Numbered from the stretch's first letter, positions 1,640 to 29,405 are shown. The stretch is DNA of 64,000 bases from Bacteroidales bacterium (GCA_014800815.1 JAAVFI010000008.1:225-64224), one strand, 5' to 3'. Translations and numbers: made by a program. Notes: a model not told the origin generated them from the letters alone.

Positions 1640-1680
1640 CAAAGTTAGATATCTTTATAGTACTATGCAATACAAAGTAC
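1640..1680 (-). promoter_or_regulatory. padR promoter (TAACTTTG, -7) with overlapping palindromic operator GTACT-N11-AGTAC
   Basis: caaagtta at 1640-1647 = TAACTTTG on minus; gtactatgcaatacaaagtac at 1660-1680 overlaps the -33 region. Confidence 0.6.
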
Positions 1681-2877: not shown

Positions 2878-4203
2878 ATGAAAAAAGCTGATTCTTCGCC
2901 AAAAGCCAAGGCTTTGGCGTACCATAGATATCCTCGGCCGGGTAAAGTTGAAGTAATCCCCACAAAACCGTTTTCTACCCCCGATGATCTCACTCTCGCC
3001 TACTCTCCCGGAGTAGCTTTCCCCTGCCTCGAAATCGCTGCCGAGGCAGACAATGTATATAAATATACCGGCCGCGGCAATACTGTTGCGGTCATTTCAA
3101 ACGGTACTGCTGTCCTCGGACTCGGAAATATCGGGCCTCTGGCATCAAAACCCGTAATGGAAGGAAAAGCCCTCCTGTTCAAGATTTTCGCCGGCCTCGA
3201 TGCTTTCGATATCGAAGTCGACGAGACCGACCCTGCAAAGTTTATAAGCATCGTCAAGGCTCTTGCTCCAACTTTCGGCGGCGTAAACCTCGAAGACATC
3301 AAAGCTCCCGAGTGCTTCGAAATCGAGCAGGGACTCGTAGGGCAGTGCGGCATCCCCGTGATGCACGACGACCAGCACGGCACTGCAGTAATCGTAGCCG
3401 CTGCATTCATCAACGCACTCATCGTCCAGGATAAGAAGATTGAAGATGTCCGACTCACTGTCAACGGTGCAGGTGCCGCTGCAATTGCGTGCACAAAACT
3501 TCTCGTGAGCCTCGGCGTGCGGCGCGAAAACATCGTGATGTGCGACAGCAAGGGTGCCATTACCACCGACCGCAAGAATCTCAACCCTCAGAAAGCGTCC
3601 TTCGCCACATCCCGTCCGGGTATCGTCACTCTCGCCGATGCAGTCCGCGACTCCGACGCATTCCTCGGACTGTCAGTGGCCGACGTCCTCACTCCCGAGA
3701 TGCTCGCTTCTATGGCTCCCCGTCCTATCGTATTCGCTCTCGCTAACCCCAACCCCGAGATAGCGCGCGACAAGGCTCTCGCCACCCGCGCTGACCTCGT
3801 ATACGCAACAGGACGCTCCGACTATCCCAACCAGATAAACAACGTTCTCGGCTTCCCATACATCTTCCGCGGTGCCCTCGATACTCGCGCCACCATGATT
3901 AACGAGGAGATGAAGCTCGCCGCCGCCCACGCCATTGCGGCTCTCGCCCGCAAACCCGCGTCAAAGGCTGTCCGCGAACTCTACAAAGGTGAAAAACTTA
4001 CCTTCGGTCCCGACTACATCCTGCCCAAACCCTTCGACCGCCGACTCCTCACCACAGTCCCTGCCGAAGTGGCCCGTGCAGCTGCCGAATCGGGCGTCGC
4101 TCTCAAGCCGATAGAAAACCTCGAGGCCTATGGCCGACGACTCAAAAAGTACGTAGCCGACACTGACGAATCGCTCCGCGCCTTCGTCGAGGCTGAAAAT
4201 TGA
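2878..4203 (+). CDS. maeB: Malic enzyme (MaeB-type N-terminal domain only, no PTA domain)
   Basis: [78 protein letters not shown]. Confidence 0.93.
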
Positions 4204-11985: not shown

Positions 11986-12144
11986 ATGGCACGACCGATT
12001 AAAGAAACCCCCGAACTTCGAGGGAACGATGCGGTGAGATTTGAAACCCTGATCTCTACCCCAAAACCTGTGTCCAAAGAGGAGAAGGAGCGAGCCCGCA
12101 AGGCTTATGAAGTAATGAAATCTATCAGCAATTTTCAGTGGTGA
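11986..12144 (+). CDS. 52-aa putative antitoxin (not in ORF track)
   Basis: MARPIKETPELRGNDAVRFETLISTPKPVSKEEKERARKAYEVMKSISNFQW; its TGA overlaps the GNAT GTG (GTGA 12141-12144); similar to 28391-28576. Confidence 0.8.
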   Translation: MARPIKETPELRGNDAVRFETLISTPKPVSKEEKERARKAYEVMKSISNFQW

Positions 12145-12683
12145 AAATTGATTTCAGCAAACTGCGCCAGTTCCAACTCACAGAGGACTCTGACATAAAG
12201 CCGTTCAAATGTGCTGATGACGATTTGAACGAATTTCTCTTTGAAGACGCAAAGCATTTTCAAAGAGAACTCATGGCTGTGACTTATTTGCTCGAATATA
12301 TGGAGCAGAATAAGACCGTAGCCTATTTCAGTTTGCTTGCTGACAAAATTATATTCAATCCTGATGAAAAGGGCGTTTGGAATAAACTTAATCGTAATAT
12401 TCCAAACTCCAAACGTCGCAGAAGTTATCCCGCAGTAAAAGTTGGTCGCCTTGCTGTGAATGAAAATTATTCCGGTCAAGGTCTTGGTACATTCATACTT
12501 GACAACATCAAGTATGCATTCTCTAATGTAAAGCGTCTTGGTTGCCGCTTTATTACAGTAGATGCGCTGAAAACTGCCGTGCCGTTTTATGAACGTAACG
12601 GCTTTCAATGTATAACAGAGTCAGACAAGGACGAAGAAACACGCCTGATGTTCTTCGACCTTAAAAATTTCATAACAGAATGA
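12141..12683 (+). CDS. GNAT acetyltransferase, AtaT/TacT-like putative toxin
   Basis: F.C.DDDLNEFL, YPAVKVGRLAV...YSGQGLG, GCRFITVDA, AVPFYERNGF; start taken at GTG 12141 (track gives 12138). Confidence 0.85.
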   Translation: MKIDFSKLRQFQLTEDSDIKPFKCADDDLNEFLFEDAKHFQRELMAVTYLLEYMEQNKTVAYFSLLADKIIFNPDEKGVWNKLNRNIPNSKRRRSYPAVKVGRLAVNENYSGQGLGTFILDNIKYAFSNVKRLGCRFITVDALKTAVPFYERNGFQCITESDKDEETRLMFFDLKNFITE

Positions 12684-12953
12684 TGTCTATGAAATATCAA
12701 CGGAAGTTCACATGGCGATATGCACACTAACCGTTTTGGTGGTTCATGGTTCACGATGGACGCATCAGTAGGCAAGTCATTCCTGAATAAATCTCTCACT
12801 CTCAAACTGTCTGCTACTGACATTTCTCTCTTTGTGCTAAATCATTTAAATTCAAACACTCTCTAAGAAACTTCATAATGATATTTTATCTGGAAGTAAA
12901 ATTTTTGGCGTATCTTTGCTTTATAATATCCAACACTGTTTCAGTATAACGGT

Positions 12954-14006
12954 ATGTTCATAAAAGACTTTTCTAAACTTTGGTTGCTCTTTGTTATAGT
13001 CACTTTATTTAATTGCTCTACAATTAATGGAACCAATATTGTAACCTATGTTGTTTCAGATAGTATAGACCTTTCTTCAGAGAAACTTAAAATGGAATTA
13101 GAGAGTTTTTCAAATGGGGATGATAAGGTTAGAATCTCTTTTAAATTGAAAAGTGCCAATGTGCCTTTTACGATTTATGATGCAAGATGGGTGAATTGTG
13201 ATACAACACTTGTCCCATCCGAACCTTTCTCATTGATTGCGCAAACTAATGAGGTGTCCGGTAAAAACACCGAATGGCACATCTCTCTTGATTTCCCATT
13301 CTCTGATACATTTGAAGATGATGATGTTTTAATTCTAAACACTGACAAAGGAATTATAAGATGTCCTACATCGATTACCGGAAAACTAAGAGTAGAGCTG
13401 GATCTTCTTCGCAACGACTATGAGAATGCAAAAATGAGTGTGCAGAATACATGGATACTTTTATTTGTTACATTGGCGTCTGTTATTGTTATCAGTGCAA
13501 TTGTTTTAATTGTTGTCAAGCGAAGGCTTACACGAAAGCAGAGAGAGATTGAAGAACTTTCAATGCTTATTTCGGAGAGAACCAATCGCAACTATGAACT
13601 GGAGGCGCAGGTTAATACTCTATATAGCAGTCGGCTTGACACGCTGAATATGTTATGTAATGAGTATTTTGAAAAAAGTGATTCCGAGAAGGTGAAACTT
13701 TCGCTATATAATGAAGTTGAAAAACAGATATTGGCTTTACGTGATACCAAAAGGATAGCAGAACTTGAAACGATTGTCAATAAATACATGGACAATATTC
13801 TCGCAAAGGTTCGTGAACAGTTGCCCGAACTTACCGGCAAAGATTTGATATTCCTTACTTATCTCTATGCCGGTTTCGCACCTCGGGCAGTTTGTATTTT
13901 TACCGATATAAAGATTAAGAATTTTTACAACCGTCGAAGCCGACTTAAGGACCGCATCCTTGAATCAAGTGCACCGGATAAGGAAACTTTTGTTTCTAAA
14001 ATGTAG
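12954..14006 (+). CDS. Membrane-spanning regulator with C-terminal LuxR-like HTH
   Basis: Signal peptide, extracytoplasmic domain, TM (WILLFV..IVVK), coiled coil, LPELTGKDLIFLTYLYAGF.PRAVCIF...NFYNRRSRLKDRI; TATCTTTG promoter at 12911-12918. Confidence 0.75.
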   Translation: MFIKDFSKLWLLFVIVTLFNCSTINGTNIVTYVVSDSIDLSSEKLKMELESFSNGDDKVRISFKLKSANVPFTIYDARWVNCDTTLVPSEPFSLIAQTNEVSGKNTEWHISLDFPFSDTFEDDDVLILNTDKGIIRCPTSITGKLRVELDLLRNDYENAKMSVQNTWILLFVTLASVIVISAIVLIVVKRRLTRKQREIEELSMLISERTNRNYELEAQVNTLYSSRLDTLNMLCNEYFEKSDSEKVKLSLYNEVEKQILALRDTKRIAELETIVNKYMDNILAKVREQLPELTGKDLIFLTYLYAGFAPRAVCIFTDIKIKNFYNRRSRLKDRILESSAPDKETFVSKM

Positions 14007-15817: not shown

Positions 15818-15910
15818 ATTTTTCGTTTGCGATGCAAAGTTAAGGCGAAATTTCTGACTGTGCAAGTATTTCGGCTGATTTTAACATTATTTTAGGCTGA
15901 GCGATTTGTC

Positions 15911-19246: not shown

Positions 19247-19355
19247 ATTTTTAAGAAAAATGAACGTATTGAAGTCTTATTTAAGTAACTTCGTGTGTGT
19301 GATGCTTGCATCAGATGAATAATTTGAGTAACTTTGTAAGTTAAATAAGTTGATA

Positions 19356-23095: not shown

Positions 23096-24196
23096 GTGGT
23101 TATTTTTGCAAAAAATACCGGAACTGTGAATCATATATCATCGCATGATGCAGGGCGCCGTAAGGTGGTGTCGACTGCTACACATGTGCTTTTCATTATC
23201 ATCATCTTCGTGCTGCCCGAGCTGCTTATGGCTATGGCATTGCCACGACGCGGCTCATTCCTGATGATGCCGGGCTTCTATGGTCGCAACCTGTTCTATA
23301 TCTGTGTATTCTATCTCAACTATTTCTATATAGTAGATACTACTTTTGCACACCGTCGTGGCCGAAAAGTTGTACCTTTTGTAGTCATCAATCTTCTGCT
23401 GCTTGCGGTAGGGCTGATGTTGAGCTACTATCTGGCGCGTGTGATGCCTTATGGGCCGAAACATCACGAACCGAGCACGCTCAAGTCGTTCAGTTTCCTT
23501 ATGCGCGATGCCGTGATGATAATTCTCACCATAGGTCTTGCCGTAGCTCTCCGCCTTTCGGCCCGTATGCAGGATATCGACAATCAGCAGCGCCAGTTGC
23601 AGTCGGAACAACAGGCTACCGAGCTCGCGAGCCTCAAGAGTCAGCTCAATCCGCACTTCCTCTTCAATACGCTCAATACCATTTATGCACTTATCGACGT
23701 CGCACCCGACGATGCCCGCAAAGCAGTGCACCGTCTGTCGGGTATGCTGCGGTATGTGCTCTACGAAGATGTGAAGTTTGTGAGCCTGACACAGGAGGCC
23801 GACTTCATACGCAACTATGTGGAACTCATGCGTCTGCGTATAGCATCGCGACCCGTCAGTGTCAATATAGATCTCGACGGGAAAGGCGATGTGCAGGTGC
23901 CTCCGCTCCTGTTCATCCCTATTATCGAAAATGCTTTTAAATACGGAATACTCGATTCTTCGGGCAGCCCGATAGAGCTCTCGCTCGTAGTGCGCGGCGA
24001 TAGTATCTGCTGCCGCACCGTCAACGCTATTGCCGGCGAGCGTGAACAGAGCGATGAAAAGAATTCAGGCATCGGACTTGCCAATCTCCGCCGCCGACTA
24101 CACCTGATCTATGGTTCGAGAGCTTCGTTTGTCACCCGTAGCTCCGGCGGTATATTCACGGCGACGCTCACCATTCCTCTCCAAATCGAAAAATAA
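23096..24196 (+). CDS. LytS-type sensor histidine kinase
   Basis: TM region; ELASLKSQLNPHFLFNTLN, IPIIENAFKYG, SGIGLANLRRRL; start codon uncertain. Confidence 0.93.
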   Translation: MVIFAKNTGTVNHISSHDAGRRKVVSTATHVLFIIIIFVLPELLMAMALPRRGSFLMMPGFYGRNLFYICVFYLNYFYIVDTTFAHRRGRKVVPFVVINLLLLAVGLMLSYYLARVMPYGPKHHEPSTLKSFSFLMRDAVMIILTIGLAVALRLSARMQDIDNQQRQLQSEQQATELASLKSQLNPHFLFNTLNTIYALIDVAPDDARKAVHRLSGMLRYVLYEDVKFVSLTQEADFIRNYVELMRLRIASRPVSVNIDLDGKGDVQVPPLLFIPIIENAFKYGILDSSGSPIELSLVVRGDSICCRTVNAIAGEREQSDEKNSGIGLANLRRRLHLIYGSRASFVTRSSGGIFTATLTIPLQIEK

Positions 24197-24945
24197 TGAC
24201 TCCTCAGAATACAACATCGACAAAGCTCCGCTGCCTGGTGGTGGACGATGAGCCCCTGGCTGCCAAACTGATAAGCACTTACGTAGAGCGTACGCCGTTC
24301 CTCGAACTCGTGGCCGAGGTATATACTGCCGAAGATGCCATAGCGCATCTCCGCGGCAGCGATATCGACCTTGTTTTTCTCGACATCCACATCCCGCGCC
24401 TGTCGGGCCTCGAACTCGCACGCCTCGTGCCCGAGCGCACGCGCATAGTGTTTACCACGGCGTACTCCGACCACGCCGTCGAAGGTTTCCGCGTGAATGC
24501 CCTCGACTATCTTCTCAAGCCGGTGAGCTACGAGGAATTTCTTGAAGCGGCCTCGCGCGGACTGCGTCATGTGGCAAAACCTGAGACTGTATCCGTAGTC
24601 GAGACGCGCCCTGCCAACCGCGAGTTTCTGCTCGTAAAGAGCGAATACCGACTTCTGCGCATACCTCTCGACGATATTCTGTATCTCGAGGGACTCAAGG
24701 ATTACGTGAAGATATTTCTTGCATCCGACTCCAAGCCCGTTCTCTCGCTTATGAGCATGAAAGCCGTGGCCGAGGAGTTGCCTCAGCCGGCTTTTATGAG
24801 GGTGCACCGGTCGTTCATTGTGAATGTAGACAAGGTGCGTGTGCTTGAGCGTAATTCAGTGATTATCGGAGGTCGCTGCATCCCTGTGAGCGACAGCTAC
24901 CGTCCCGATTTCATGGAGATTATTATGGGCAATCGTCACGACTGA
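24196..24945 (+). CDS. LytTR family response regulator
   Basis: VVDDEPLA, FLDIH, FTTAY, DYLLKPV receiver; F.RVHRSFIVN LytTR. Confidence 0.96.
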   Translation: MTPQNTTSTKLRCLVVDDEPLAAKLISTYVERTPFLELVAEVYTAEDAIAHLRGSDIDLVFLDIHIPRLSGLELARLVPERTRIVFTTAYSDHAVEGFRVNALDYLLKPVSYEEFLEAASRGLRHVAKPETVSVVETRPANREFLLVKSEYRLLRIPLDDILYLEGLKDYVKIFLASDSKPVLSLMSMKAVAEELPQPAFMRVHRSFIVNVDKVRVLERNSVIIGGRCIPVSDSYRPDFMEIIMGNRHD

Positions 24946-25727
24946 CGCTTGTAGAGCGCCGTCATAGGCAGGCCTACGAAGAGTGCGCCTCCCACGATAT
25001 TTCCGAGTGTGGCAGGCAGCAGATTTGCAGTGAACATCTCCGAAATTCCTATCGGCGCGCCCTGCATCATGGCAAGGGGGATGAAGAACATATTGGCCAC
25101 GCAGTGCTCATATCCGAGGGCTACGAAAGCGAATACGGGAATCTCGCAGGCAAGCAGTTTCTCGCCCAAGTGACGACCGCTGAGCGCGAGCCATACGGCA
25201 AGACATACACACCAGTTGGCTCCTATACCTTTGAGAAATACCACCCACGGCGATGCCGAAACTTTGGCCATGCCTATGCGGCATACAGCGTCGGAGTAGG
25301 GTTGGGCTGCCGTGATATCGGTAAGATATACAAGAAAATAAGCCACGATAAGCGCACCCGCGAAGTTGGCGCACCATACCAGTATCCAGTTTGTGGCTAC
25401 TCGCAGAGGGCTTATAGAGCGCGATGCCAGCGGCGGCATGAGCAGGGCGTTGTTGCCTGTGAAGAGGTCGGCTCCAAGAATTACTACGAGCATAAGTCCA
25501 ATGGGGAATACGGCGCCGCTGAGCAGGCGCTGTATGCCCGGATTCTCTGCCGTAATGGTAGGGAAGCCAAAGCCTATAATAATGGAAAGCACGCCTCCGA
25601 GAGCTATGTAAGCTCCGGCAAGCGTGCTTGATAATGCGAAATTGAAGGCCGGACGATTCGCCGCGGCTTTAGTTAATCCTGCCTGGTGTGCGGCAGTTAG
25701 GGTCTCGGCGGGTGTTCGAACCGGCAT
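24936..25727 (-). CDS. Formate/nitrite transporter (FNT)
   Basis: LAGAYIALG, GADLFTGN, KGIGANWCVCLA, GYEHCVANM, GNIVGG. Confidence 0.95.
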   Translation of the reverse strand: MPVRTPAETLTAAHQAGLTKAAANRPAFNFALSSTLAGAYIALGGVLSIIIGFGFPTITAENPGIQRLLSGAVFPIGLMLVVILGADLFTGNNALLMPPLASRSISPLRVATNWILVWCANFAGALIVAYFLVYLTDITAAQPYSDAVCRIGMAKVSASPWVVFLKGIGANWCVCLAVWLALSGRHLGEKLLACEIPVFAFVALGYEHCVANMFFIPLAMMQGAPIGISEMFTANLLPATLGNIVGGALFVGLPMTALYKRQS

Positions 25728-25728
25728 A

Positions 25729-26229
25729 TCAGTCTTGTCTTGCTTTTTCGTTATTGTTTCGTATTCCTTCTCTTTGTGTGCGGTGGTGCCTTACGAGGCG
25801 CTGAGTGAACGAGCGCTCGGCAGCACGCAATTTCAGAAGCTGACGGGGCGAGAGAATTTCTTTGAAGCGGTCGAAATACTCCATTTCCACCTTGCCTTCA
25901 CGTTCTTTCTGGCTGTAGACGGCATTGGCTGCCGCCTCGATTTCTGTCTGTGATGCGTCCTTGCTGGCCTCGACACGCTTCTCGAGGTCGCGTGTTTCGG
26001 TAGAAATCTGCTGCAGACGGTCGTCCATTTCGTCGTAGACGGTGAAGAACTCTTTCTGCTGCTCTTTTGTGAGATTTAATTCTTTAGCGAGCACTTCGTG
26101 CTTATAGCCGCGGAGCTCGTTGAAGAATCTGTCGCGACGGTTCTCCGGAGAGTCCTGAGCCGAGACGGCGGCGGGGAAGATTATTGCCAGAATGGCAGCG
26201 ATAACTATTCGCCGTAGGGTGATGATCAT
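25729..26229 (-). CDS. Periplasmic helical protein (Spy/CpxP-like)
   Basis: Signal peptide; LNLTKEQQKEFF..Y, ILSPRQL..L motifs. Confidence 0.65.
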   Translation of the reverse strand: MIITLRRIVIAAILAIIFPAAVSAQDSPENRRDRFFNELRGYKHEVLAKELNLTKEQQKEFFTVYDEMDDRLQQISTETRDLEKRVEASKDASQTEIEAAANAVYSQKEREGKVEMEYFDRFKEILSPRQLLKLRAAERSFTQRLVRHHRTQREGIRNNNEKARQD

Positions 26230-26241
26230 AGGGAAACGTAT

Positions 26242-26724
26242 TTATTGAGGAAGTATATAATCCGCATCAGATTCGGGCTCGGTGAGGAAGCTCTCAAAAT
26301 ATGTCTCGTCGTCGAAAGTTTCGTCGTCGAGCATTTCATCTACTATATCCCATGAGTTGACATCGTCGTAGATGTAGTCGAGCACGAACGAATCATCCGA
26401 CAGCGCGTTTGCAAGTACGGGGTTATCGGAGAGGGGAGTGAGCTGTCCGGCGCCCGATAGGTTTGTGAAGAGCTGCATCATGAGCCAGATACCGGCAAAC
26501 ATTGCGGCCATATATACATACGGCCTCACTTTCTGCCAGAACGAACGCACCTCGGCAACTTCTGCCCGAGTAGAGCTTTCAATCTCGGGACGTTCGGGAA
26601 GCATCTCGGCCATGCGTGTGGCGAAGTTCTCGAAGTAACCTTCCGGTACCTCAAGGCCTGCCGACGGTCGTTTCAGCCCCAGCTCCTGAGCTTTAGCTAA
26701 TATGTCGTTGTTTTTTGTTGCCAT
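26242..26724 (-). CDS. Single-TM protein, putative anti-sigma factor
   Basis: VPEGYFENF..R motif, one TM, acidic C-terminus; directly downstream of an ECF sigma. Confidence 0.7.
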   Translation of the reverse strand: MATKNNDILAKAQELGLKRPSAGLEVPEGYFENFATRMAEMLPERPEIESSTRAEVAEVRSFWQKVRPYVYMAAMFAGIWLMMQLFTNLSGAGQLTPLSDNPVLANALSDDSFVLDYIYDDVNSWDIVDEMLDDETFDDETYFESFLTEPESDADYILPQ

Positions 26725-26769: not shown

Positions 26770-27330
26770 TTAACCGAGCCGGTCGAAAAATTGTTCGATT
26801 TTCTTTACCGCAAGGTGGTAGGAGGCTTTCAAGGCACCTACCGATGTGCCGAGTATCTCCGACATTTCTTCGTATTTCATGTCATCGAAGTACTTCATGT
26901 TGAACACAAGGCGCTGCTTTTCGGGGAGTGAATCTACGGCCTTGCGCAGATTTTCAGCCAGAGCTTCACCGTCGGGGCTCTCGTCGGCTGTCAGTCCTCT
27001 GAGTTCCGAGGCTTCGTCGGCCTCGATTGAGACTGTGCCCCTGCGCTTTTCTTTCTCTAAGAACGACAGGCTCTCGTTGATTGCTATCTTGTAGAGCCAC
27101 GTGGTGAGGCGTGCCTCGCCTCTGAAATTCTCAATCGACTGCCAGGCCTTCATAAATGTATTCTGCAGCAGGTCGTTGGCATCATCGTGAGAAGGTACCA
27201 TGCGGCGTATCTGCCAGTAGAGGGGTTCGCTGTACAGCCGTATCACCTCGTTGAATGCCGAACGCACAGTCTCTGGCTCGCGTAGCTGTGCCGTGAGTTC
27301 TTCTATCTTTTCCGGTTTAATGTTCGCCAT
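26770..27330 (-). CDS. ECF RNA polymerase sigma factor
   Basis: DANDLLQNTFMKAW..I.NFRGEARLTTWLYKIA; GTSVGALKASYH. Confidence 0.95.
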   Translation of the reverse strand: MANIKPEKIEELTAQLREPETVRSAFNEVIRLYSEPLYWQIRRMVPSHDDANDLLQNTFMKAWQSIENFRGEARLTTWLYKIAINESLSFLEKEKRRGTVSIEADEASELRGLTADESPDGEALAENLRKAVDSLPEKQRLVFNMKYFDDMKYEEMSEILGTSVGALKASYHLAVKKIEQFFDRLG

Positions 27331-27563
27331 ACTGTGGGGTGAATTTCAATGTCCAAAGTTACAAAATTTTTCCCAAATAGAGAAGACGTGGGCGCCAAAG
27401 AGTCTTTCAAAAGCCTTAAATACTGTCTATAAACATTAAATAAACTATAAATATGTAGTTAAATGTTAAACATGAATTTGTTAATGCGCAGATAATTAAG
27501 TATTTACGATTTTACACTAATTTCGAGGCGATTCAGGTACTTGCACAAACAAAAATACCTCCC

Positions 27564-27571
27564 TAACTTTG
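27564..27571 (+). promoter_or_regulatory. Bacteroidetes -7 promoter with no protein gene downstream
   Basis: TAACTTTG, with TTG at 27541-27543. Confidence 0.65.
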
Positions 27572-27575
27572 CAGT

Positions 27576-27738
27576 GCAAAAAATAGCAGATACATAAGAT
27601 CAGATGTTGTGAAACATCCTCGTTGTAAAAGACTCAACTTTACGCAATTATCTAACACAATGTCTATAGGACAACTGTTTAGGCTGAGTAATTCAGCGCA
27701 AGTACCCGTTCCAAGTGTGGCACGGGTACTTTTGTTTT
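27576..27738 (+). ncRNA. Candidate structured small RNA (~160 nt)
   Basis: Promoter; GATGTT-GTGA-AACATC, TGTC-TATAG-GACA and GCTGA-GTAAT-TCAGC hairpins; perfect 10-bp terminator stem (27700-27709/27722-27731) plus TTGTTTT. Confidence 0.6.
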
Positions 27739-27785
27739 ATGATTAAAGTGAAGTATGCTAAAGACTTTTAGACGTTGAAGATTGG

Positions 27786-28394
27786 TTATCGAGATTTTAA
27801 GTCGAAGAACATAAATCGAGTTTTTAGAGGTTCTTGCGGTGATAATTCCAGAAAAGTTCTTTCTTCGTCTTCTGATTTATACAAAGGTTTAAAACCATTT
27901 TTTTTGTAGAAATGTATGGTTTTATCATTGTTATACGCATCAACTACAATGAACCGACACCCGGTTTTATTGTCTGTAGATTTAAACCACTCTTTTACAT
28001 AATCAATAATCTGACTTCCGATTTTCAAACCTTTACCGCGATATAGGGTGGAGACTCCAAGACGTCCTATAAGCACTGCAGGGTAATTTATACCACGTTT
28101 AGTATTTATAACGGAGCGCTGAAGTCTGTTGAGGGCAGATTTTGCAATAAGTTTCAACTTTACACTATCATTGGACAGTGTAATCATTCCTAAAATTTCT
28201 TTAGGGTCAGATTTGTTGACCCAAGCGTAAGTTTTGCCTAACAGTTCTGAGTCGTAATGTAAGGCTACGTTGGTGAAAAAATCATCTAAATCATTATCCT
28301 CACAGCAAAATGGAGTGCAGAATGCCGCTAATTCTGCTGTATAGGGAACTTTGACTGCATCTTTTGAAAGATCAAAATTTAGAGATTTATTCAT
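27786..28394 (-). CDS. GNAT acetyltransferase, AtaT/TacT-like putative toxin
   Basis: FCCEDNDLDDFF, YPAVLIGRLGV...YRGKG..IG, GCRFIVVDA, FYKKNGF, MFFDLK. Confidence 0.85.
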   Translation of the reverse strand: MNKSLNFDLSKDAVKVPYTAELAAFCTPFCCEDNDLDDFFTNVALHYDSELLGKTYAWVNKSDPKEILGMITLSNDSVKLKLIAKSALNRLQRSVINTKRGINYPAVLIGRLGVSTLYRGKGLKIGSQIIDYVKEWFKSTDNKTGCRFIVVDAYNNDKTIHFYKKNGFKPLYKSEDEERTFLELSPQEPLKTRFMFFDLKSR

Positions 28395-28576
28395 CCTTTC
28401 TTTCCAAATAACTGTTGATAGAATTCCCGAGATTTGCGTTCAATTTCTCGGAGATATTCTTCGCGCTCAGGAGATAGGCGAGGAGTTGGATTCTGTGCAT
28501 TTCTTTCTGCCTCTTCAAAAAAGATACGGGCAGATTCACCGGTAAGAATTGGTGAAGAGTTGATTGTCATTGCCAT
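28391..28576 (-). CDS. 61-aa putative antitoxin
   Basis: MAMTINSSPILTGESARIF...; ATGA overlap with the GNAT; TATATTTG promoter at 28597-28604; similar to 11986-12144. Confidence 0.78.
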   Translation of the reverse strand: MAMTINSSPILTGESARIFFEEAERNAQNPTPRLSPEREEYLREIERKSREFYQQLFGKKG

Positions 28577-28652
28577 AATAATATACTTTTAGACTACAAA
28601 TATACTACTATATAACATATTGCGCAAAAAAATTGCACAATATTAATTAGTA

Positions 28653-29405
28653 TTACCAAAAAAATCGGTGGTGCTTGCGGTAAAAGTAGAGCAGGGCGCG
28701 GGTGTGAACGCGGGCGCCGCGTGAAAGAAGCGAGGAGGTGGTGGCGCGCTGCCAGTCGTGGACTATGGAGAGGGTGGGGATGTAGACTACCTTCTTGCCG
28801 GCGGCACGTACACTCATGCAGAAGTCGGCATCCTCGGGCCCGTAGAAGATGTTTTCGTCGAGGCCGCCCGACGAGCGGTAGATTTCGGCATCGAACATCT
28901 GGGCTGCCCCGATTACGTAGAATGGTTCGACGGGTGTAGCGGGTACGCTACGGGCTATCGACGATTTCCGTTTTCCTGCAATGATGTTGGAAAGTTTGCT
29001 GAAAATGCCGGGGTAAGGGCGGAAACTGCTCTGGACGTCGCCCTGAGGACTGATGAGCCGGGGAGCGACAAGACCAACGTCGGGATGCTTGTCAAGGTAT
29101 TCCGAGAGTGCTTCTATGGCGTCGGGGCTTGCTACGGTATCGTTGTCGAGTATCATCAGCCGACGGCCTCGGGCGAGGGATAATCCTCTGTTGCGGCCGC
29201 CTGCCACTCCGTAATTTTTATCGAGCTTGAGAATGCTTATGGCAGGGAATTCGGCTTTCACCGATTCCGACGTCCCGTCGGTCGAACCGTTGTCGACAAG
29301 TATTATCTCGCGTCCCGGGCGCTCCAGAAGCCCGTAGACAGAGCGGATGCAGCGCAGAGTGAGCTCGCGCTGATTGCATGTAAGGATTACGAGCGAGATA
29401 TCCAT
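28653..29405 (-). CDS. Glycosyltransferase family 2
   Basis: LVDNGSTDG, N.GVAGGRN.G, ILDNDT, YGPEDADFC. Confidence 0.93.
   Translation of the reverse strand: MDISLVILTCNQRELTLRCIRSVYGLLERPGREIILVDNGSTDGTSESVKAEFPAISILKLDKNYGVAGGRNRGLSLARGRRLMILDNDTVASPDAIEALSEYLDKHPDVGLVAPRLISPQGDVQSSFRPYPGIFSKLSNIIAGKRKSSIARSVPATPVEPFYVIGAAQMFDAEIYRSSGGLDENIFYGPEDADFCMSVRAAGKKVVYIPTLSIVHDWQRATTSSLLSRGARVHTRALLYFYRKHHRFFW

Follow-up and report, generated by a model that had tools for sequence, protein, structure and literature searches.

A probable lineage-restricted small RNA gene beside an ECF sigma operon in gut Muribaculaceae

Introduction

MasB is reportedly a trans-acting sRNA of Bacteroides thetaiotaomicron, while in the Proteobacteria the envelope-stress sRNAs MicA, RybB, MicL and CpxQ are linked to ECF or Cpx systems. 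A different type of small RNA, 6S RNA, is a rod-like helix of ~180 nt, opened by a large central bubble, and is present in all relatives. GNAT toxins are type II toxins with protein antitoxins. GibS and the FopS family have been described as intergenic trans-acting sRNAs of B. thetaiotaomicron (PMC11697453). Members of the FopS/GibS family, which is found in the Bacteroidaceae and was deposited in Rfam according to its authors, share the R1 seed, consist of a terminator preceded by a single-stranded 5' region, and occur in multiple copies per genome (PMC11697453). Bacteroides polysaccharide utilisation loci also carry cis-antisense sRNAs of the DonS type, as far as the account of Cao et al. 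(2016) given in PMC11697453 goes. A full-text literature search found no description of an sRNA from the Muribaculaceae, a family of dominant, mostly uncultured gut bacteria of rodents and other animals.

Here we describe a locus in a 64,000-nt stretch of DNA (the window) from a Bacteroidales bacterium. The initial annotation had described a stand-alone structured RNA facing a GNAT toxin–antitoxin (TA) module, and had suggested that it was either a component or regulator of that module or the sRNA of a mobile element. The sequence comparisons below indicate that this is very likely a real, previously undescribed non-coding RNA gene of ~160 nt, which goes with a neighbouring sigma operon and not with the GNAT module. 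Like stand-alone sRNA genes in general, it has its own promoter and an intrinsic terminator that bound a short intergenic unit, is conserved above the neutral level with structure-preserving substitutions, and is non-coding.

Results

Genomic setting

The closest relatives of the sigma factor adjacent to the RNA identify the host of the window as a Muribaculaceae genome. The best 80 GTDB species relatives of this protein share 65-78% identity with it and mostly bear Muribaculaceae or related Bacteroidales labels, although a few of the MAGs among them have evidently wrong taxon labels. The RNA locus is AT-rich (38% GC versus ~54% around it) and diverges from the following operon:

26770..27330, minus strand: ECF sigma factor gene, which heads the operon, is divergent from the RNA and is its conserved neighbour
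26242-26724, minus strand: second operon gene, encoding a 160-aa membrane protein without family match
25729-26229, minus strand: third operon gene, encoding a periplasmic protein that resembles Spy/CpxP/LTXXQ

This arrangement of sigma factor and RNA is kept in the related loci L092, L093-L095, L103 and L037, and the sigma gene is the sole neighbour common to all carriers of the RNA. The gene downstream of the RNA is convergent on it in the window, L092 and L093 (and apparently in L037, judged by eye only), and the RNA is therefore not a 5' leader; on the L103 contig no gene is called beyond the RNA. In most other Muribaculaceae the slot of the RNA is taken by a TonB-dependent receptor gene, likewise divergent from sigma. 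At L010, L024, L042, L045, L056, L064, L069 and further loci, this receptor gene lies upstream of sigma with a TAnnTTTG promoter of its own. On the far side of the sigma operon, and syntenic in L092 and L093, the window has a block consisting (by Pfam label) of a gene of the formate/nitrite transporter family (24936-25727, minus strand), adjoined by a LytTR response regulator (24196-24945) and a histidine kinase (23096-24196).

Promoter and transcript

The promoter, the hairpins (at least three, namely H1 with its GUGA loop, hairpin 2 and H4) and the perfect 10-bp terminator named in the initial annotation are all present at 27564-27738, and the promoter proved to be of Bacteroidota type. The elements of the gene, together with two overlapping reading frames, are as follows:

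27541..27544, plus strand: upstream promoter element TTGC in the -33 region, conserved in L092, L093, L103 and L037
27564..27571, plus strand: -7 element TAACTTTG of the Bacteroidota TAnnTTTG type, with TAATTTTG or TTACTTTG at the same site in relatives
27577..27738, plus strand: predicted primary transcript of ~160 nt, its 5' end placed (~2 nt) from promoter geometry and the start of homology, its 3' end from the U tract
27578..27595, plus strand: conserved 5' segment AAAAAAUAGCAGAUACAU, A-rich and predicted to be mostly unpaired, identical in the window, L092 and L093 save for the length of an A run
27603..27618, plus strand: hairpin H1, GAUGUU-GUGA-AACAUC, with a 6-bp stem and a GNRA tetraloop, pairing in 100% of cells over five sequences
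27619..27633, plus strand: conserved linker CUCGUUGUAAAAGAC, a candidate seed or partner of ACAAC, with CUCGUUGUAAAAGA invariant in the window, L092 and L093
27642..27654, plus strand: motif 1, ACGCAAUUAUCUA, identical in L092 and L037 and near-identical in L093, L048 and L103
27655..27677, plus strand: motif 2 or hairpin 2, ACACAAUGUCUAUAGGACAACUG, which holds the family-wide UCUAU and the C-N2-C of ACAAC/ACGAC
27683..27697, plus strand: hairpin H4, GCUGA-GUAAU-UCAGC, present only in three close species
27700..27738, plus strand: Rho-independent terminator, with a perfect 10-bp stem (27700-27709/27722-27731) followed by UUUUGUUUU
27660-27746, plus strand: 28-codon ATG reading frame, which overlaps the RNA and passes through the terminator
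27609-27746, plus strand: 45-codon GTG reading frame, which overlaps the RNA

The promoter has the layout TTGC-N19-TAACTTTG (27541-27571, plus strand). Its TTTG / TAnnTTTG elements, reportedly described for Bacteroidota by Bayley and colleagues in 2000, are of what we take to be the housekeeping promoter type of that phylum rather than the E. coli sigma-70 consensus. A scan for E. coli-type sigma-70 promoters missed it because a promoter of Bacteroidota type lies outside the rules of such a scan. The composite TTGC-N19-TAnnTTTG occurs five times in the 64-kb window, where 0.14 occurrences are expected, and the other four motif matches precede the following genes:

15835-15865, minus strand: tRNA-Glu
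28597-28627, minus strand: the GNAT operon
19306-19336, plus strand: a uvrA-like gene (named from its N-terminal sequence only)
1640-1670, minus strand: a PadR-like gene (named from its N-terminal sequence only)

The composite is thus common to stable-RNA and protein-coding genes. The RNA promoter resembles that of tRNA-Glu: over 43 nt around the RNA promoter, the identity to positions 15868-15826 is 79%, and in other Muribaculaceae contigs a match to the RNA promoter alone is followed by tRNA-like sequence. A housekeeping-type promoter of this tRNA-promoter design would be strong, with transcription starting at ~27577 and ending at the intrinsic terminator at ~27738, which would yield an RNA of ~160 nt.

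The terminator hairpin spans 27700-27731, with AAGUACCCGU/ACGGGUACUU as its outer stem and a U tract that runs to 27738; its loop size falls outside the rules of a simple terminator scan, which missed it. The fold of the whole RNA has a minimum free energy of -44.5 kcal/mol (z = -3.4 versus shuffled sequences). As the fold of the opposite strand is just as good (z = -3.6), folding energy cannot set the strand, and the RNA was assigned to the plus strand on account of its promoter, its U tract and its G-U pairs, which fit that strand only. Read on the minus strand, the terminator hairpin has hardly any U tract behind it, and a weak reverse-strand match of the covariance models described below (27691-27883, minus strand, 22.6-27 bits) rests only on this palindromic hairpin. 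It may be, judging from this sequence, that the GNAT operon lacks an efficient terminator and reads into the RNA gene.

The middle of the RNA has at least two competing folds. In one, hairpin 2 (27661-27673) forms a local stem (27661-27665/27669-27673), which is kept in L092 with a G-U to A-U change and is replaced by another hairpin in L093; in the alternative given by RNAalifold, the GUUGU of the linker pairs over a longer range with ACAAC at 27672-27676. The conserved sequence blocks are predicted to be unpaired only in part, and the motifs ACGCAAUUAUCUA and ACACAAUGUCUAUAGGACAAC within the RNA are related to each other.

The initial annotation had been unable to assign the RNA to a known family, and this assessment stands: cmscan of the RNA against Rfam 15, whose families include 6S, SRP, tmRNA and the Bacteroidales and Bacteroides motifs, gave no match at the gathering score or at E <= 10. 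Over the whole window, two tRNAs alone reach the gathering score, and the region 27300-27900 has three chance-level matches at E <= 10, each below 15.1 bits. There is no second copy of the RNA in the window.

Conservation in close relatives

In L092, whose sigma factor is 90% identical to that of the window, the RNA lies in the same place, divergent from sigma, and is ~86% identical (85% by blastn); in L093-L095 (sigma 81% identical) it again lies there and is 79% identical. These values of 86% and 79% compare with 58% and 50% at the third codon positions of sigma, and with 62% and 58% in the spacer between sigma and the RNA promoter, for L092 and L093, respectively. As it is conserved above both the third codon positions and the spacer, the RNA is under purifying selection, with conservation that begins at the promoter and ends at the terminator. 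The window and L092 show 17 differences, and of these only one affects the 52 nucleotides that are paired, turning G-U into A-U. The stem of H4 is identical in L092 and L093, while its loop has changed to AUAAU in the former and to GAAA, with 1 nt deleted, in the latter. A further RNA variant, ~90% identical, occurs in four other samples in a different context with unlike outer flanks. The aligner clipped this match to 27579-27736, although visual inspection shows similarity upstream as far as and including the -7 box (TAATTTTG). Where the variant differs, the differences listed are confined to loops and linkers.

The initial annotation had proposed covariation as a check, and compensatory changes are seen in both H1 and the terminator of the five sequences compared. 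In this alignment, which was fitted to the covariance model and includes three close relatives, 95.5% of cells pair, versus ~40% after shifting the partners by 1-3 columns; double changes occur in nine pairs, and none of 500 shuffles reaches the observed values. Three of the six pairs of H1 have compensatory changes (G-C/A-U/C-G/U-G; A-U/U-A; U-A/C-G), visible in the raw sequences of L103 (CUUGUU-GUGA-AACAAG) and L037 (UUUGCU-GUGA-AGCAAG), while the GUGA tetraloop is invariant across all five sequences. The terminator has compensatory changes in five of its nine modelled pairs, for example from GUACCCG/CGGGUAC to GUAUCCG/CGGAUAC in L093. Together with the promoter, the terminator and the conservation, these changes bear out the description of the locus as a stand-alone structured RNA gene.

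Distant members and distribution

Searches of the 80 sigma-orthologue loci (GTDB species) with the RNA by blastn and nhmmer gave no match, and distant members were found first by eye and then by covariance model. A model built from the three close sequences (R1) recovers L103 at full length (38.6 bits, E ~1e-5), and a second (R2), built from the same set plus L103, recovers L037 (29.5 bits, E ~1e-3) and gives a weak match to L003 (18.6 bits; E = 0.3-1.5 by covariance model). The matches in L092, L093 and L103 span the whole model, and those in L103, L037 and L003 lie on the divergent strand, a few hundred nt upstream of the sigma orthologue. Among the weak matches of nhmmer, three of the best five fall in the small zone beside sigma (L048 at E = 1.7), a clustering that is unlikely to arise by chance (rough estimate ~2e-4). 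L048 and L003, which have the AUUAUCUAUAAAA motif, the position and the strand in common with the other sequences, are possible members only, so that the confident family comprises n=5 sequences, three of them close relatives. L078 and other matches to the motif lie in coding-like sequence and were rejected as chance. RNA runs from the window organism were looked for, with none found; in RNA-labelled runs with the L037 locus, only flat contigs at a low depth of 3-6 were seen, at contig level, a pattern as compatible with a discrete transcript as with its absence.

The features found family-wide are the promoter, the GUGA hairpin, a core motif like AUUAUCUAUAAAACAAC and the terminator; a MAFFT alignment of seven sequences shows TCTAT without any variation and C..C as conserved. 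The AUUAUCUA/UCUAU motif occurs twice in L037 (3572-3749, minus strand) and L048 (3648-3825, minus strand), as in the window. The copies in L048 are 23 nt apart, and the second copy in L037, GUUUUCUAUCAGAACGAC, resembles hairpin 2 of L093; such doubling of the motif suggests an internally duplicated module.

Approximately 75 of the 80 Muribaculaceae species loci have no such RNA at the sigma position, and it is therefore dispensable for the Muribaculaceae as a whole. The RNA is also absent beside the sigma homologues P0123, P0127 and P0138 (L096-L102), where too little space lies between the genes. Metagenome contigs from JGI and viral contigs, each scanned for two exact patterns, gave 0 matches; the JGI metagenomes seem to hold few close relatives of the window organism.

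The toxin–antitoxin cassette

Beyond its terminator, the RNA faces an inserted segment with a GNAT toxin gene:

27740..28677, minus strand: inserted AT-rich segment, not part of the RNA gene, with the GNAT operon promoter (28597-28627) inside it, ~940 bp where L092 has ~49 bp
27786-28394, minus strand: GNAT toxin gene, within the insertion
28391-28576, minus strand: gene of the 61-aa upstream partner of GNAT, within the insertion, without Pfam or NCBIfam match

As first described, the RNA converges on the GNAT reading frame, which ends at 27786, leaving 48 nt between the end of the RNA and the toxin stop. A global alignment of the window and L092 is collinear from the start of sigma to 27739 and again from 28678. 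The gene order of L092 (peptidase U32, radical SAM, glycosyltransferase, RNA, sigma) is that of the window but has no TA pair, and the RNA terminator lies ~24 nt from the glycosyltransferase stop; in L093-L095, two unrelated genes lie beyond the RNA and there is no GNAT module. The nucleotide homology of the cassette to other loci is confined to 27794-28627 (~69% identity), outside the RNA. On the evidence of this collinearity and of the limits of the cassette, the TA cassette was inserted later, just behind the RNA terminator, and the convergent arrangement seen in the window is best read as an accident of insertion.

Homologues of the GNAT toxin number in the thousands, and eleven loci were examined for three of them. 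In these loci (L082-L091), which have GNAT modules 67-73% identical to that of the window in approximately four genomic contexts besides that of the window, the toxin is accompanied by its ~61-aa partner and the RNA is absent; most of them have only 84-118 nt downstream of the toxin. Homologous cassettes elsewhere sit in unrelated contexts; within the same sample set, L086 has an integrase in place of the upstream sequence, and L089 and L090 have a serine recombinase on the downstream side of the cassette. The window has a second GNAT gene (12138-12683, plus strand), which encodes a 181-aa protein 36% identical to the first, lies in a low-GC patch (12000-14000, 37-39% GC) and is followed on its 3' side by the gene of a 350-aa protein (12954-14006). 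No copy of the RNA lies beside it.

Discussion

We consider the locus to be a chromosomal, lineage-restricted sRNA gene of a subgroup of Muribaculaceae, most likely encoding a trans-acting regulator, and give this reading a probability of approximately 60%. Base-pairing in trans is our best guess at its mode of action. The conserved blocks (CUCGUUGUAAAAGA; ACGCAAUUAUCUA; UCUAU...ACAAC) would base-pair with mRNAs encoded elsewhere, and the hairpins and the terminator would confer stability and possibly offer a protein-binding site.

The gene-neighbourhood comparison, also proposed as a check in the initial annotation, turned up the divergent ECF sigma operon as the constant partner of the RNA, and not GNAT. 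The RNA might accordingly work with or on the adjacent envelope-stress module of ECF sigma factor, anti-sigma factor and Spy-like protein, as the non-coding arm of its regulon or as a protein-binding decoy, a proposal that is the main alternative although we regard it as unlikely. It is suggested by the retention of sigma as the only neighbour in every carrier and by the resemblance of the third operon gene to Spy/CpxP/LTXXQ, and the invariant GNRA hairpin could dock a protein or an RNA. In L093, moreover, the hairpin-2 region of the RNA (3640-3670, minus strand, AGUUUUCUAUUGAACGACUG) is nearly antisense to the sigma coding sequence at ~+180 (CAGUCGAUAGAGAACU), being complementary to the codons for WQSIENF at -24.6 kcal/mol, within the top 0.4% of the locus background, and L092 has a weaker match at the same sigma site. 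However, the window (-10.3 kcal/mol, 54th percentile), L103 and L037 lack this complementarity. Pairing with the sigma coding sequence was thus rejected as a conserved mechanism, and what is seen in L093 is due to coincidence or to an interaction specific to that lineage. The target scan covered the local sigma operon with the conserved core of the RNA, as duplexfold of the whole RNA gave meaningless long duplexes, and found no conserved base-pairing site there. Further, the RNA promoter is of the housekeeping type common to tRNA genes and not obviously of ECF type, and the linkage to sigma may simply be inherited. The more specific version, in which the RNA occupies the slot of the TonB-dependent receptor as the non-coding arm of the module and feeds back on sigma or represses envelope proteins, appears less probable still; if true, it would provide a Bacteroidota counterpart of the MicA/RybB/CpxQ logic.

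It is also improbable that the locus makes no functional RNA and is instead a conserved region that regulates the sigma operon at the DNA level, or a promoter and terminator orphaned by gene loss. The discrete transcript is a prediction from sequence, most Muribaculaceae have in that place a TonB-dependent receptor gene, which could be the gene lost, and proteins could bind to the DNA at the repeats of the AUUAUCUA/UCUAU motif; yet compensatory changes preserve helices of RNA, with G-U pairs that suit one strand, conservation is bounded by promoter and terminator while the spacer toward sigma is as diverged as silent sites, and the RNA has no similarity to the leaders of receptor genes. The suggestion that the RNA belongs to a mobile element (an island, transposon, phage or plasmid) now seems very unlikely. 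Its AT-rich locus adjoins an inserted cassette and its distribution among the Muribaculaceae is patchy, but in at least five species the RNA keeps one and the same place beside the sigma operon, with a variable flank on its far side, and the spacer between the genes aligns collinearly with that of L092. Searches of 72,556 plasmids, 50,697 phage records and viral contigs gave no match to the RNA, and no integrase, transposase or flanking repeats lie beside it. A role in the GNAT module, whether as RNA antitoxin, as regulator or as antisense partner of the 3' end of the TA mRNA, is more doubtful again. The RNA does converge on the toxin at close range within one AT-rich patch, and the poor U tract of the minus strand could let TA transcripts read into the RNA gene, giving an incidental antisense overlap which, to judge from the loci compared, would be specific to the window species. 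Against this, the orthologues in L092 and L093-L095 have no TA neighbour, neither the eleven similar GNAT loci nor the second GNAT gene has the RNA, the homology of the cassette stops at 27794, short of the RNA, and the RNA has no tandem repeats and does not overlap the toxin coding sequence. A type III (ToxI-like) RNA antitoxin was rejected on similar grounds, the RNA lying on the opposite strand, downstream of the toxin, without repeats and not co-inherited, as was a type I antisense RNA, given the 48-nt gap from the toxin stop. Least probable of all is that the locus encodes a small protein. Both the 28-codon and the 45-codon reading frame exist in the window, the former with the coordinates and the run through the terminator first described, but in L092 it is cut short after 10 codons, in L093 its ATG is missing, and the ~90% identical variant has frame-shifting indels at 27654, 27680, 27709, 27714 and 27716. 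Conservation tracks stems and loops and not codon positions, and no gene is called at the RNA locus in public assemblies, so that the 28-codon frame, broken in relatives, is not considered a gene.

A conserved RNA of ~160 nt that is syntenic with an envelope-stress-type sigma operon would provide an entry point to RNA-based regulation in the Muribaculaceae, and its covariance model could serve to annotate the RNA in other genomes. Should it be just one more lineage-specific sRNA, it would be useful for annotation and unsurprising. The locus also warns against guilt by association, as the adjacent TA cassette is a recent insertion and not a functional partner.

Among the systems described, RNA antitoxins of the ToxI type are similarly small, structured and beside a toxin gene (here in one genome), but in contrast to type I and III antitoxins the RNA lies on the opposite strand, has no repeats or overlap with the toxin coding region, and is not co-inherited; the GNAT module has its own 61-aa upstream partner, comparable to the protein antitoxins of type II systems. 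6S RNA was rejected, since the RNA forms several local hairpins, matches neither RF00013 nor 6S-Flavo and is absent from most Muribaculaceae loci. In so far as the source describes them, DonS-type RNAs are comparable in having an sRNA gene beside an ECF sigma/anti-sigma pair in a Bacteroidales genome, but they are antisense to a susC-like gene, whereas the RNA here overlaps no gene and has no adjacent SusC/SusD pair. MicA, RybB, MicL and CpxQ offer the parallel of a small RNA genetically tied to a module of ECF sigma factor, anti-sigma factor and periplasmic chaperone-like protein. However, those RNAs are sigma-E-dependent or processed from the cpxP 3' UTR, while the RNA here is a separate, divergent gene with a housekeeping-type promoter and no homology to them, and its functional link to such a module is putative.

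Membership of the FopS/GibS family, whose structure is simpler, was rejected, as the RNA has 3-4 hairpins, no second copy in the window and no match in Rfam 15, a release that may include the model which the authors of the family deposited in Rfam. Compared with GibS, FopS and MasB more broadly, the RNA matches them neither in sequence nor through Rfam, occurs once in the window, has several hairpins, including one with a GNRA loop, and is confined to a few Muribaculaceae species. It resembles them in having, as a stand-alone gene, its own canonical TAnnTTTG promoter and Rho-independent terminator, in its conserved, probably part-unpaired blocks as possible seeds, and in belonging to a phylum without Hfq and ProQ. 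By these comparisons it appears to be a new, lineage-restricted family, present in a few gut Muribaculaceae species, of a kind of sRNA that is already known.
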